A stretch of DNA of 40,019 nucleotides from a virus (Duplodnaviria; Heunggongvirae; Uroviricota; Caudoviricetes), in the IMG/VR virus record IMGVR_UViG_2531839180_000007; one strand, written 5' to 3'. Shown here one piece after another: positions 91 through 38,197 of the stretch. Numbering within the stretch: the first letter of the stretch is position 1; every line of letters begins with the position of its first letter. A program made the translations under genes and the position numbers. The notes beneath the pieces were generated by a model. The model saw nothing but the letters and a program-made list of their open reading frames with translations, was not told the origin of the DNA and ran no database searches.

Positions 91-105
91 TTAGTATAAA
101 AAAGC
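91..105. repeat. Lambda att core (15 bp; TTAGTATAAAAAAGC here, the reverse complement of GCTTTTTTATACTAA); bio-side junction (attR, P-O-B')
   Basis: The same 15-mer recurs at 38183..38197. The left flank reads as the attB B' arm (cgaaacgggaaggtaaaaagacaa in reverse complement) and the right flank as the lambda-like P arm. Confidence 0.85.
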
Positions 106-250
106 TGAACGCGAAACAGCAAAAGCCAATAATATCAATGTGTTAAAATACATTTAGTCTAAAAAATAGACTTCATGATACTACAAAACACAACATATCC
201 AGTCACTATGAATCAACTACTTAGGTGGTATTAGTGACCTGAGACAGAGC
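106..250. promoter_or_regulatory. att P arm (region expected to carry Int arm-type, IHF and Xis binding sites)
   Basis: Reverse complement closely resembles the lambda attP P-arm sequence as I recall it (..ggtcactaataccacctaagtagttgattcatagtgact..). Individual protein sites were not mapped. Confidence 0.5.
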
Positions 251-251
251 A

Positions 252-293
252 TTAGCGCAAGGTGATTTTTTGTCCTCTTGCGCTAATTTTTTG
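252..293 (+). terminator. tI/sib-like intrinsic terminator hairpin beyond the P arm
   Basis: Stem ttagcgcaag (252..261) pairs with cttgcgctaa (277..286) around a 15-nt loop, followed by a T-run at 287..293. It sits where lambda sib/tI lies relative to att. Confidence 0.45.
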
Positions 294-448
294 TCATCAA
301 ACATATCGCACTCCAGAGAAGCACAACACCTTGCAGTCCAGTGCAAAGCTTTGTGTACCAGAGTTTTCCTCATCAACTACCGCAAGTATCGATCGATTGA
401 GACTTGGATGATAGACTTCATACCTTTCAGAACTCATTGATTAAATAA

Positions 449-811
449 ATGTTAAATATATTTGCAAGGTACACCTCGATTGGTGTGCTGAACACACTTA
501 TACACTGGGTGGTTTTTGGTGTATGTATCTATGCCGCGCATACCAATCAGGCTCTGGCAAACTTCGCAGGTTTCGTTGTGGCTGTGAGTTTTAGCTTCTT
601 CGCGAATGCAAAATTCACATTCAAAGCATCAACTACAACGATGCGCTACATGTTATATGTCGGGTTCATGGGAACACTGAGTGCTACTGTTGGATGGGCT
701 GCTGATAGATGCGCACTTCCCCCGATGATAACTCTTGTCACCTTCTCCGCCATCAGCCTGGTGTGCGGTTTCGTCTATTCAAAGTTCATTGTCTTTAGGG
801 ATGCGAAATGA
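449..811 (+). CDS. gtrA: GtrA-family bactoprenol-linked glucose translocase (flippase)
   Basis: 120-aa small hydrophobic protein with a GtrA-like sequence, first gene of a three-gene gtr operon. Confidence 0.8.
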
Positions 812-1737
812 AAATTTCTTTAGTCGTTCCGGTCTTTAACGAAGAGGCCACGATACCTATTTTTTATAAAACCGTGCGCGAATTTGAAGGGCTTCAGCAG
901 CATGAAGTCGAGATAGTCTTCATAAACGATGGCAGCAAAGACGCTACAGAATCAATTATCAACGAGCTTGCTGTTGCCGACCCGCTTGTGGTTTCGCTGT
1001 CGTTCACACGTAACTTCGGCAAAGAACCCGCCCTGTTCGCAGGTCTGGACCATGCTACCGGGGAGGCAATTATCCCGATTGACGTTGATCTGCAAGACCC
1101 TATCGAAGTTATTCCTCACTTGATAGAGAAATGGCAGGCCGGTGCAGATATGGTTCTGGCTAAACGCTCTGACCGCTCCACTGACAGCAGGCTGAAGCGT
1201 AAATCTGCTGAGTGGTTCTATAAACTTCATAACAAAATCAGCAACCCTCAGATAGAAGAGAATGTTGGCGACTTCCGGCTCATGTCTCGCGAAGTAGTAG
1301 AAAATATTAAGCTCATGCCAGAACGAAACCTGTTTATGAAGGGTGTGCTGAGCTGGGTTGGTGGTCGAACCGATGTCGTAGAATATGCGCGAGCAGAACG
1401 CGTTGCAGGAAGCACAAAGTTCAATGGATGGAAGCTATGGAACTTGGCGCTGGAAGGGATCACTAGCTTCTCAACATTCCCGCTTCGCATGTGGACCTAT
1501 ATTGGGTTATTTATTGCATGTATATCATTTACATACGGTTCATGGATGATAATTGATAAATTAATTTTTGGTAATAATGTACCTGGATACCCTTCAATTC
1601 TTGTATCAATATTGTTTCTTGGCGGCGTACAACTAATTGGTATTGGTGTACTTGGAGAGTACATAGGACGTATTTATATTGAAGTTAAGCAGCGCCCAAG
1701 ATATGTTTTAAAGGATCAGAAAAATGATTGCAAATAA
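808..1737 (+). CDS. gtrB: GtrB bactoprenol glucosyltransferase (GT2 family)
   Basis: 309 aa beginning [13 protein letters not shown] with a DxD-containing GT2 domain and C-terminal transmembrane helices. Start overlaps the gtrA stop. Confidence 0.85.
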
Positions 1738-36386: not shown

Positions 36387-36727
36387 CAACCGAAATTAAC
36401 TACCATGCACTGCTTGAGCGCGCACGGAATAAAGTGCAGAGCATTGAGTTCGCCTTAACACAGAGTGCATTCGCTGAGATTCGCGCTGAGCTTGAAAATG
36501 ATTTAGAACTGGCACGGATTGCACTGGCATCTCTGGAAGTTGAGCCAGATGAACGCGCAGCCTATGAATTATTTATGGAAAAGCGTTTCGGTAAAACAGT
36601 CGATCGTCGGAGAGCAAAAAACGGCGATAACGAATACATGGCATGGGATATGACTCTCGGTTGGATCATCTGGCAGCAACGAGCTGGTATCCATTTTTCA
36701 ACAATGTCACAACAAGAGGTGAAATAA
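36383..36727 (+). CDS. Hypothetical early protein (114 aa)
   Basis: ATG overlaps the stop of the upstream gene (translational coupling); upstream of xis. Confidence 0.45.
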   Translation: MTTEINYHALLERARNKVQSIEFALTQSAFAEIRAELENDLELARIALASLEVEPDERAAYELFMEKRFGKTVDRRRAKNGDNEYMAWDMTLGWIIWQQRAGIHFSTMSQQEVK

Positions 36728-36841
36728 TAGAGCCATACAGCCTCACACTCGATGAGGCCTGTTCATTGCTCAATGATATCCAGACCTACCATCGCCGCAT
36801 CAATGCGGCTTTTTCTTGCGTGTAATTGCGGAGACTTTGCG

Positions 36842-37060
36842 ATGTACTTGACACTTCAGGAGTGGAACGCTCGCCAGCGACGCCCAAGAAGCCTTGAAAC
36901 AGTTCGTCGATGGGTGCGCGAATGCAGGATATTCCCTCCTCCGGTTAAGGATGGAAGAGAGTATCTGTTCCACGAATCAGCGGTAAAGGTTGACTTAAAT
37001 CGACCAGTAACAGGTAGCCTTTTGAAGAGGATCAGAAATGGGAAGAAGGCGAAGTCATGA
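36842..37060 (+). CDS. xis: Excisionase Xis (lambda-type)
   Basis: 72 aa, MYLTLQEWNARQRRPRSLETVRRWVRECRIFPPPVKDGREYLFHESAVKVDLNRPVTGSLLKRIRNGKKAKS, matching lambda Xis by recall; overlaps the int start. Confidence 0.9.
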   Translation: MYLTLQEWNARQRRPRSLETVRRWVRECRIFPPPVKDGREYLFHESAVKVDLNRPVTGSLLKRIRNGKKAKS

Positions 37061-38108
37061 GCGCCGGGATTTACCCCCTAACCTTTATATAAGAAACAAT
37101 GGATATTACTGCTACAGGGACCCAAGGACGGGTAAAGAGTTCGGATTAGGCAGAGACAGGAGGATAGCAATTACTGAAGCAATACAGGCAAACATTGAGT
37201 TATTTTCAGGACACAAACACAAGCCTCTGACAGCGAGAATCAACAGTGATAATTCTGTTACGTTACATTCATGGCTTGATCGCTACGAAAAAATCCTCGC
37301 CAGCAGAGGAATCAAGCAGAAGACACTTATAAATTACATGAGCAAAATTAAAGCAATAAGGAGGGGGCTACCTGATGTTCCACTTGAAGACATCACCACA
37401 AAAGAAATTGCAGCAATGCTCAATGGATACATAGACGAGGGCAAGGCGGCGTCAGCCAAGTTAATCAGATCAACACTGAGCGATGCATTCCGAGAGGCAA
37501 TAGCTGAAGGCCATATAACAACAAACCCGGTCGCTGCCACTCGCGCAGCAAAATCAGAGGTAAGGAGATCAAGACTTACGGCTGACGAATACCTGAAAAT
37601 TTATCAAGCAGCAGAATCATCACCATGTTGGCTTAGACTTGCAATGGAACTGGCTGTTGTTACCGGGCAGCGAGTTGGTGATTTATGCGAAATGAAGTGG
37701 TCTGATATCGTAGATGGATATCTTTATGTCGAGCAAAGCAAAACAGGCGTAAAAATTGCCATCCCAACAGCATTGCATGTTGATGCTCTCGGAATATCAA
37801 TGAAGGAAACACTTGATAAATGCAAAGAGATTCTTGGCGGAGAAACCATAATTGCATCTACTCGTCGCGAACCGCTTTCATCCGGCACAGTATCAAGGTA
37901 TTTTATGCGCGCACGAAAAGCATCAGGTCTTTCCTTCGAAGGGGATCCGCCTACCTTTCACGAGTTGCGCAGTTTGTCTGCAAGACTCTATGAGAAGCAG
38001 ATAAGCGATAAGTTTGCTCAACATCTTCTCGGGCATAAGTCGGACACCATGGCATCACAGTATCGTGATGACAGAGGCAGGGAGTGGGACAAAATTGAAA
38101 TCAAATAA
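37038..38108 (+). CDS. int: Integrase Int (lambda-type tyrosine recombinase)
   Basis: 356 aa beginning MGRRRSHERRDLPPNLYIRNNGYYCYRDPRTGKEFGLG.. and ending ..DDRGREWDKIEIK, essentially lambda Int by recall; 3' end abuts the P' arm and core. Confidence 0.92.
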   Translation: MGRRRSHERRDLPPNLYIRNNGYYCYRDPRTGKEFGLGRDRRIAITEAIQANIELFSGHKHKPLTARINSDNSVTLHSWLDRYEKILASRGIKQKTLINYMSKIKAIRRGLPDVPLEDITTKEIAAMLNGYIDEGKAASAKLIRSTLSDAFREAIAEGHITTNPVAATRAAKSEVRRSRLTADEYLKIYQAAESSPCWLRLAMELAVVTGQRVGDLCEMKWSDIVDGYLYVEQSKTGVKIAIPTALHVDALGISMKETLDKCKEILGGETIIASTRREPLSSGTVSRYFMRARKASGLSFEGDPPTFHELRSLSARLYEKQISDKFAQHLLGHKSDTMASQYRDDRGREWDKIEIK

Positions 38109-38182
38109 TGATTTTATTTTGACTGATAGTGACCTGTTCGTTGCAACAAATTGATAAGCAATGCTTTTTTATAATGCCAACT
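38109..38182. promoter_or_regulatory. att P' arm
   Basis: Reverse complement reads ggcattataaaaaagcattgcttatcaatttgttgcaacgaacaggtcactatcagtcaaaataaaatca, matching the lambda attP P' arm as recalled. Confidence 0.8.
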
Positions 38183-38197
38183 TAGTATAAAAAAGCA
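38183..38197. repeat. Lambda att core (15 bp), gal-side junction (attL, B-O-P')
   Basis: ttagtataaaaaagc identical to 91..105; followed by attB B-arm sequence (aggcttcaacgg..). Confidence 0.85.

Follow-up and report, generated by a model that had tools for sequence, protein, structure and literature searches.

The DNA analysed here is a stretch of 40,019 nucleotides (IMG/VR virus record IMGVR_UViG_2531839180_000007, Caudoviricetes; the whole stretch is referred to as the window), and it contains a prophage of 38,091 bp, one core copy counted, flanked by Escherichia coli chromosome on both sides. The genes gtrA, gtrB and gtrC adjoin the attR junction, while xis and int adjoin attL, and between them lie a host-range cassette, the tail, head and terminase genes, a pair of reverse-oriented cargo genes, the lysis cassette and the early regions (Table 1). 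We consider it very probable that this element is an SfV-like lambdoid myovirus prophage, with SfIV as the closest sequenced phage, in which the native thrW attP-int-xis region has been replaced by a module of about 1.7 kb of lambda/HK97 type.

Table 1. Features of the prophage and its flanks, with the segments that match lambda and HK97 DNA; positions are those of the window.
Feature	Position	Strand	Remark
Host flank, bio/ybhB side	1..90	.	Ends in B' half of attB; ybhB ends just upstream in GN25
attR core (15-bp overlap/core region, as in lambda)	91..105	-	Exact match
Lambda-type P arm with sib/tI hairpin	106..297	-	Similarity to lambda/HK97
P-arm sites H2; X2; X1; P2; H1; P1	133-145; 163-177; 185-197; 200-209; 211-223; 230-240	-	
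sib/tI hairpin	~248-297		Invariant across lambda, HK97 and the window
Left crossover, lambda-type/Sf-type	329..365	.	Lambda similarity 87-360, SfIV similarity from 329
gtr operon	449..3211	+	gtrA 449-811 (PF04138); gtrB 808-1737 (PF00535); type-specific gtrC 1724-3211 (PF14264)
Host-range cassette	3416..4850	-	Inverted tfa remnant 3416-3541 (+); tail fibre assembly gene (tfa) 3513-3917; tail fibre 3918-4850
Contractile-tail and baseplate genes	4854..14811	-	Mu gp38-gp48 homologues, sheath, tube, tape measure; amino acid identity 97-100% to SfIV, 30-43% to Mu
Neck and HK97-fold head genes	within 14808..21845	-	Capsid protein 16271-17476; protease; portal 18119-19360; amino acid identity 98-100% to SfIV
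Terminase large and small subunits	19554-21778	-	
cos	~21845/21846		SfIV genome ends map there
HNH endonuclease	21904..22254	-	Adjoins small terminase gene; 91% identical to SfIV/SfV
Reverse-oriented cargo	22430..23656	+	182-aa HepS-like HEPN protein 22430-22978; ClpP-like peptidase 23057-23617; terminator 23639-23656
Lysis cassette	23645..24977	-	Rz1 23645-23902; Rz 23787-24179; endolysin R 24163-24639; holin S 24643-24977
Rightward early and late-control genes	25069..31382	-	
tR'-like terminator; Q	25069-25090; 25503-26255		Terminator strong, upstream of lysis genes
DUF968, KilA-N, RusA, LexA-like, yfdN	within 25069..31382	-	
O-like initiator	29292-30233		Five 15-bp iterons at 29859-29935
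CP76-type CII-like; cro-like	30578-31129; 31122-31382		
CI-type repressor	31480..32172	+	Helix-turn-helix and S24 peptidase; Ala-Gly site, GDSM and VKRL motifs present
Leftward early operon	32520..36727	+	yfdP/Q/R homologues; ninC-like phosphoadenosine phosphosulfate (PAPS)-reductase gene 35508-36386; hypothetical 36383-36727
ECs1072-family gene	32698-33132	-	Reverse-oriented
Right crossover	36740..36789	.	50-bp stretch common to HK97 and SfV orf28/CPS-53 yfdT
Lambda/HK97-type cassette	36816..38181	+	pI CII site 36816-36829; xis 36842-37060; int 37038-38108; P' arm 38109-38181
P'-arm sites H'; P'1-P'3	38144-38156; 38105-38135		
attL core	38182..38196	-	Exact match
Host flank, gal side	38197..40019	.	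ybhC 38243-39526; two REP-type repeats 39542-39725; ybhJ end
Lambda match, P arm	87-360		87%
Lambda match, tfa	135 nt		75%
Lambda match, part of R	24227-24621		86%
Lambda match, ninC-like	35521-36340		74.5%
Lambda match, xis-int-P'	36794-38196		97.9%
HK97 match, P arm			91%
HK97 match, part of R			84%
HK97 match, right end	36740-38196		99.2%

The lambda core (GCTTTTTTATACTAA) is present in exactly two copies in the window, both on the minus strand, and two copies were seen in none of 100 dinucleotide-preserving shuffles. Of the two chromosomal flanks, the left one (ybhB side) finishes with the B' half-site, and the right one begins with the B half-site, beyond which ybhC is found. An empty attB site was rebuilt in silico from window positions 1-105 and 38197-38346 and searched against 5,426 complete E. 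coli genomes, in 3,489 of which it was uninterrupted, with identities of up to 99.6%; about one in three of these genomes has an interrupted site. Since the reconstructed site was found uninterrupted, the insertion is precise and the site is lambda attB, with the prophage located between ybhB and ybhC. The same junctions were recovered from approximately 28-35 other complete genomes and are thus not an assembly artefact. These results agree with a preliminary description of the sequence, which had placed both hybrid att junctions with the 15-bp core inside the window and an element of 38.1 kb at lambda attB; only its right end, given as 38197, was one nucleotide too far, as the core ends at 38196.

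The proteins and sites of the integration module closely resemble those of lambda and HK97. Int is identical to lambda Int at 353 of 356 residues (the exceptions being A114V, H164P and I248V) and to HK97 Int at 355 of 356, and the catalytic residues R212, K235, H308, R311, H333 and Y342 are all as in lambda. Residues N99, S282, G283, R287 and E319, which according to the work of Dorgai, Yagil and Weisberg separate lambda from HK022 core specificity, are of the lambda type and not of the HK022 type. Xis is identical to HK97 Xis over all 72 residues and to lambda Xis over 71, and the P' arm (100 nt) is 100% identical to that of lambda. The P arm represents a distinct allele, with 146 of 172 positions (85%) identical to lambda, 155 of 171 (91%) to HK97 and 98% to 042p1, a prophage of enteroaggregative E. 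coli 042. The sites were matched to the Int, integration host factor (IHF) and Xis binding sequences of lambda attP. Sites P1, H1, P2, X1, C, C', H' and P'1-3 are exact, X2 has three substitutions, of which two are common to HK97, and H2 has two substitutions that leave the IHF consensus WATCAANNNNTTR intact. Every arm-type Int site, every IHF site (H1, H2, H') and both Xis sites (X1, X2) are thus present, together with the sib/tI hairpin, and the whole reads as a lambda-type Int/Xis att module for which recombination activity is predicted. The preliminary description of int, xis and att as lambda-like was therefore borne out in the alignments.

Both borders of this module could be mapped. On the left, lambda similarity gives way to SfIV similarity in a stretch where the end of the lambda b region and the region upstream of gtrA in SfV and SfIV have part of their sequence in common. 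On the right, the window follows HK97 exactly through xis up to the shared 50-bp stretch and SfV on the other side, and the switch falls within about 24 nt (36740-36763) that are identical in HK97, SfV orf28, CPS-53 yfdT and the window; the cassette boundary in 042p1 is the same, at 36737. By these comparisons only about 1.7 kb, comprising the P arm, sib, xis, int and the P' arm, is of lambda/HK97 type, and the cassette appears to have been swapped by recombination at two short stretches common to the parental lineages. The suggestion that the element is a clean example of modular exchange is well supported in this respect, as both crossovers lie in short shared stretches of approximately 25-35 bp. 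A hairpin (GCTTTGCA...TGCAAGGT) is located at 328-349, where the lambda-type sequence switches to the Sf-type sequence, and was flagged on the minus strand by the terminator scan. Lambda (around 27480-27510) and SfV/SfIV have different sequences at the corresponding place, with the inverted-repeat character apparently kept, and it is possible that the hairpin guides recombination as a conserved element of the boundary or terminator kind.

Outside this module, the top phage matches were SfIV, SfII, SfI, SfV and E. coli phages such as vB_EcoM-720R4, with 95-97% DNA identity in BLAST searches of phage records. In local BLAST, window positions 4549-21845 aligned to SfIV positions 17312-1 as a single colinear block of 17.3 kb that includes the baseplate, tail, neck, head and terminase genes, with 96.9% DNA identity, and SfIV aligned over 28.7 of the 38.1 kb in total. 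The lengths of all of the approximately 20 virion open reading frames (ORFs) equal those of the viable phage SfIV. The preliminary description had divided this region into an HK97-like head and a Mu/SfV-like contractile tail. No DNA match to the HK97 head genes was obtained in the local BLAST against HK97, and the portal, protease, capsid protein and large terminase, the only four proteins in the window's virion region that match HK97, are 26-36% identical to their HK97 counterparts (portal 32%, protease 36%, capsid protein 26% over 41% of its length) as compared to 98-100% for SfIV. The resemblance of the head to HK97 is of the family kind, with a capsid protein of family PF05065 and a protease annotated as "HK97 family phage prohead protease" by the Prokaryotic Genome Annotation Pipeline (PGAP). 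Likewise, no DNA similarity to Mu tail genes was detected, and the sheath, hub and gp45-48 homologs are 97-100% identical to SfIV/SfV at the amino acid level but only 30-41% identical to Mu. The block of 17.3 kb thus argues against a body put together from HK97 and Mu pieces; the separate HK97-like head and the separate Mu-like tail have to be abandoned, while the SfV-group origin of the tail stands. The body is best read as one colinear lambdoid myovirus of the SfIV type, with HK97 and Mu likeness at the family level only. That it is a non-lambda body is also clear, in that no lambda virion gene (head E, D, C/Nu3; tail V, H, J) gave a DNA or protein match, except for a partial match to tfa (67% amino acid identity over 49%; 135 nt at 75%).

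We compared the prophage to its known relatives. Chaudhuri et al. (2010; PMC2808357) described prophage 042p1/ROD15 of strain 042 with structural genes related to SfV, a direct repeat of 15 bp and, at the tail end, gtrAB. This prophage is located between ybhC and ybhB as in the window, with the same excisionase protein and an identical GtrA. Identities to 042p1 are 98.0% for attR, the P arm and gtrAB, 99.1% for the fibre, tfa and baseplate, 97.5% for the tail, head, terminase and HNH genes, and 98.5% for xis-int-attL-ybhC. It differs from the prophage studied here in the early, immunity, replication and lysis region, where 042p1 has lambda/P22/HK97-like genes (N, cII, DnaB-type P, nin genes) and the window SfIV-type ones, in the holin and Rz, in the tape measure (25% amino acid identity) and tail assembly (46%) proteins, in having an unrelated GtrC, and in the absence of HepS-like and ClpP-like cargo. 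Prophages of this kind are thus already known, with 042p1 as the published att-lambda precedent from 2010, and what is new in the window is the orphan GtrC and the remotely HepS-like HEPN gene.

SfIV (NC_022749) has the same colinear virion genes, the same cos site, most early genes at 91-97% identity and the same order gtrABC-attP-int-xis. It differs in gtrAB (only 80% DNA identity), in an unrelated GtrC, in the fibre tip, immunity, ninC-like and reverse cargo genes, and in carrying insertion sequence elements that are absent from the window. Sf phages have a thrW-specific integrase with a 46-bp core and the order gtrABC-attP-int-xis, and SfI is itself an SfV/lambda mosaic (PMC3636060). In the window the core is that of lambda, rather than the 46-bp Sf/P22 core at thrW, and no tRNA was found. 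SfV-like prophages have been described as lambdoid Myoviridae that occupy five integration sites in E. coli (Bobay et al., 2013; PMC3603311), and since the wider group uses five sites, thrW is a trait of the Shigella members only. The core, Int, Xis, P' arm, sib/tI and all sites are shared with the module of lambda, HK97 and 434, from which the window differs in the P-arm allele and in that the phage hosting the module lacks a lambda-type CII. The K-12 element CPS-53 (KpLE1) resembles the window in yfdN-O and yfdP-R (96-97%), yfdT (93%) and yfdG/H, that is gtrAB (81.5%), but is a 10-kb remnant at argW with IntS/TorI, another GtrC (YfdI) and no virion genes. It is a decayed relative of the same phage group.

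The mosaic itself was identified in approximately 28-35 of the 5,426 complete genomes; its hosts were isolated from human, poultry and wild-bird sources, and its annotation in RefSeq is routine. No INPHARED record covered at least 80% of positions 36300-38200 and none joined a lambda P arm to gtr, so that this combination was seen only in bacterial genomes. The closest copy, in GN25, is separated from the window prophage by eight substitutions and one indel over 38.1 kb (0.024%), as against 26 differences at 1,332 sites (1.95%) in the neighbouring ybhC. Such near-identical phages in diverged chromosomal backgrounds suggest recent horizontal spread, and hence recent functionality. A deposited phage genome, ON470605.1 (vB_EcoP-720R6), matches the attR region at window positions 9-296 with 93.4% identity, including about 80 nt of the ybhB-side flank; the inclusion of this bacterial flank suggests that the record contains a prophage junction or transduced host DNA.

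The early region has a lambdoid layout, with CI, divergent cro-like and CP76-type CII-like genes, O-type replication and a Q antiterminator. The repressor, of the autocleavable S24 kind, had no tblastn match in lambda, HK97 or 042p1, and its match to SfIV/SfV was marginal (38% identity over 20% of the length). With a repressor unrelated to lambda cI, the prophage and lambda are heteroimmune. Phages of different immunity that both use lambda att are able to lysogenise one cell in tandem, and occupancy of attB would therefore not simply exclude lambda; a putative competition with lambda for attB is plausible. The CII site at pI (TTGCGTGTAATTGC) is retained in the swapped cassette. A scan for lambda-type pRE sequences (TTGC-N6-TTGC) identified only pI and one wrong-strand copy inside cro, i.e., two matches versus 3.0 expected by chance, and a lambda-CII-type pRE in the immunity region was rejected. 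The pI site is possibly an orphaned regulatory element after the module exchange, and Int synthesis in the course of lysogenisation may be driven by transcripts that read through from pL and end at tI, or by another activator. This raises the question of how a CII-dependent lambda int promoter works in a phage without a lambda-type CII. The PAPS-reductase-family gene at 35508-36386 is 79% identical to lambda NinC at the amino acid level and is placed at the yfdS position of the Sf phages and CPS-53; its SspD-like match in PADLOC (E-value 1e-14) probably reflects a shared fold only.

The gtr operon at the far end of the element, noted already in the preliminary description, is evident from the Pfam matches (GtrA PF04138, 51 bits; GtrB PF00535, 106 bits; GtrC PF14264, 94 bits; also phrog_4829). 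It has the make-up of such operons, with a GtrA flippase-like protein, a GtrB glycosyltransferase family 2 (GT2) bactoprenol glucosyltransferase and a GtrC-family transferase, and is located directly across attP from int-xis, as in all Sf phages. GtrA and GtrB are 87% and 86-89% identical to the SfV/SfIV proteins and 99-100% identical to those of 042p1. GtrC (495 aa) falls in one E. coli cluster, which comprises 373 sequences; the next relatives are 28% identical, and no phage-borne GtrC of more than 27% identity was found. In 042p1 an unrelated GtrC is located at the same position between flanks that are otherwise 98-99% identical, which identifies gtrC as a swappable cassette. A promoter scan upstream of gtrA gave no site scoring at least 9 of 12 and was uninformative; as for Dam/OxyR-type sites, one GATC cluster was seen in 361-448, judged by eye.

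The tail fibre next to this operon is Sf-type in its N-terminal third and ends in a glycine-rich domain. It is 95% identical to the SfIV fibre over just 33% of its length but 99% identical to the 042p1 fibre over 100%, and the tfa product is 100% identical to that of 042p1. An inverted tfa fragment on the plus strand (3416-3541) abuts the functional tfa gene on the minus strand (3513-3917), an arrangement reminiscent of the Mu G segment and of the pair of alternative tfa genes in SfIV. There is no invertase gene, and the fragment is probably the vestige of an invertible or alternative host-range cassette.

The cargo pair has its own terminator and occupies the strand opposite to that of the HNH gene and the lysis genes, which flank it; it is missing from SfIV, SfV, 720R4, 042p1 and all phage records searched. 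The 182-aa protein is rare, with 16 clusters among 5.8 billion proteins, and the alignment contains an invariant R96-N-K-R-S-H101 (R-x4-H) motif. It had no match in PADLOC, Pfam or NCBIfam. The gene occurs in three divergent lambdoid prophage contexts, each time alone, reverse-oriented and beside the small terminase gene. For its AlphaFold2 model (predicted local distance difference test score, pLDDT, 88), the best Foldseek match was HepS of Gifsy-1, although this match is remote (E-value 6.5e-4, template modeling score 0.55-0.59, identity 15-19%). A profile search of PDB sequences also gave HepS, again remotely (E-value 0.0034), over 55 residues round the motif, which aligned to R100...H105 of HepS. 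The lambda J tail tip is the trigger of HepS, a stand-alone HEPN anticodon nuclease, and HepS-type proteins are defined as stand-alone proteins of at most 250 aa with an R-x4-6-H motif that are encoded on prophages (PMC13043305). The 182-aa protein resembles these in size, motif and prophage context, and is a candidate single-gene abortive-infection nuclease with remote likeness to HepS. Here, the HepS-like gene is carried by a myovirus without a J-type tail tip.

The neighbouring ClpP-family peptidase (186 aa) matches PF00574 with 47.7 bits, below the NCBIfam cut-offs, and is an orphan. Its gene is located outside the head module, on the opposite strand, and is not co-conserved with its HEPN-like neighbour. 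A two-gene defence system formed by the pair was considered and rejected, because the 182-aa gene stands alone in three contexts and neither protein had a match in PADLOC.

Endolysin R had been counted among the lambda-like modules in the preliminary description, but it is 98% identical to SfIV R as compared to 88% to lambda R, and it belongs to a lysis cassette in which the holin and Rz are Sf-type and not lambda-like, so that this assignment does not hold. Holin S contains a -1 frameshift in a run of G at 24842-24848 on the minus strand, where G8 has become G7. The reading is ...AYFGGGGGWKRK... in GN25, SfV and SfIV and ...AYFGGGVAGSEKRSRFCSVVL followed by a stop in the window, which truncates the holin after the first transmembrane domain (TMD1; ...FGGGVAGSEKRSRFCSVVL, stop) and leaves the remaining two-thirds in another frame. 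The tract of five glycine codons in which the run is located (24836-24850) has the form G11 in GN25, G8-T-GG in KK19-02, where the holin is intact, GGTGGTGGTGG in SfV and 720R4, and GGTGGTGGCGG in SfIV. The element had been described as intact; its full length, both att junctions and all other genes support this, but the holin of the copy as sequenced does not. As written, the prophage is predicted to excise and assemble particles but should fail to lyse the cell, like lambda Sam7.

Two explanations of the frameshift have roughly even odds, a read error in the homopolymer or a real private mutation. According to the first, for which the chances are a little below even, the prophage is fully functional and one G was lost in sequencing or assembly. 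The missing G falls in the only G/C homopolymer of at least seven nucleotides in the window of 40 kb, it is the sole indel relative to the GN25 copy over 39.5 kb, and all genes other than the holin gene are intact. The window allele was found in none of 819 E. coli genomes with the segment (best identity 99.0%, with every listed match 102 nt long as compared to 101 nt for the query), and all 167 public holin alleles that variable-gap scans recovered from metagenome and viral contigs keep the reading frame. Against a read error, the window has no other homopolymer indels, which disfavours a generally error-prone assembly, G8 tracts slip in vivo, and the loss of a holin is a plausible first step in prophage domestication.

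The second explanation, to which we give the same weight, short of one-half, is that the frameshift is real and that the prophage is lysis-defective and newly domesticated while still supplying gtr and other cargo. The sequence as given truncates the holin, and a homopolymer (G8 or G11) is a rare derived state of this lineage, in that 154 of the 167 public alleles are GGTGGTGGTGG and one has the G8 form; the tract would thus be unusually prone to slippage in this lineage. This has to be set against an allele that is unique to the window sequence, and against remaining genes that are intact and near-identical to copies in other hosts, so that any inactivation would be very recent. It is very improbable that slippage of the tract acts as a reversible lysis lock, in which G7 is an OFF state that leaves the phage, complete in other respects and carrying the new GtrC and the HepS-like nuclease, harmless to its host until reversion. 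Such phase variation is unsupported by the 167 in-frame alleles, only one of which carries a homopolymer.

About equally improbable is that the element stopped being a phage long ago and is now a cryptic remnant of the CPS-53 or e14 type. Segments with 96-97% identity are shared with CPS-53 (yfdN-O, yfdP-R), and PGAP flagged a few pseudogene fragments in the GN25 copy. However, the element has its full length of 38.1 kb and virion ORFs as long as those of SfIV, both att sites, cos and the terminase, replication, immunity and lysis genes are all present, and the copies differ by only 0.024% in hosts whose flanks differ by 2%. The supposed stfP pseudogene of GN25 corresponds in the window to a continuous chimeric fibre ORF of 310 aa that is 99% identical to 042p1 over its full length in tblastn. 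Least credible, to the point of being scarcely conceivable, is a lambda-derived hybrid that acquired an HK97 head and a Mu/SfV tail separately and retained lambda R: the HK97-family protease and capsid protein, the Mu gp38-48 homologs and the 88% identity of R recall such a hybrid at the family level, but the head, neck, tail and terminase form one SfIV-type block with no resemblance at the DNA level to head genes of HK97 or tail genes of Mu, the lysis proteins R, holin and Rz are of Sf type, alignable DNA amounts to only 3.0 of 38.1 kb for lambda (2.1 kb for HK97), and the direction of exchange is that of an Sf-type phage receiving a lambda-type integration cassette.

Several observations weigh against our reading of the element as an SfV-like myovirus prophage with a working lambda-type module and a serotype-converting operon. 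One of the substitutions in X2 is absent from both lambda and HK97. The lambda CII site at pI has been kept, yet the resident CII-like protein is of the CP76/186 type. No characterised relative of GtrC exceeds 28% identity, so that serotype conversion is suggested by family membership only. Finally, owing to the holin frameshift, the copy as sequenced is not strictly intact.

The life cycle of the prophage can be outlined from the established biology of lambda, HK97 and the Sf phages. Cleavage of CI triggered by the SOS response would de-repress the early operons, upon which Int, Xis, IHF and Fis would excise the genome through attL x attR recombination and O-type replication would be initiated at the iterons. 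Antitermination by Q at tR' would then permit lysis, cos packaging by HNH and terminase, and the assembly of an HK97-fold head with a Mu-type contractile tail, and the contractile-tailed virion would adsorb via the swapped fibre. In the lysogen, GtrA, GtrB and GtrC would glucosylate the O antigen, and superinfection by O-antigen-dependent phages would probably be blocked.

The tRNA and Rfam scans gave no match inside the prophage, and the sole Rfam match was the naRNA4 derived from repetitive extragenic palindromic (REP) sequences in the host flank (71.9 bits). Two tandem repeats of 92 nt of the REP/bacterial interspersed mosaic element (BIME) type, 96% identical to each other, are located in this flank at 39542-39725, between ybhC and ybhJ. 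In the comparison with GN25, positions 39529-39744 were unaligned, with 91% identity beyond, and GN25 appears to differ there.

Current understanding of these phages is unchanged by this analysis, as the architecture has been on record for strain 042 since 2010 and SfI and other lambda/Sf mosaics are familiar. To this the window adds two unstudied cargo items, the E. coli-specific GtrC and the remotely HepS-like HEPN protein. It also provides a well-resolved textbook case in which a whole att-int-xis cassette, including the sib retroregulator, appears to have moved between phage lineages, and this swap would have retargeted a serotype-converting myovirus from thrW to att-lambda.

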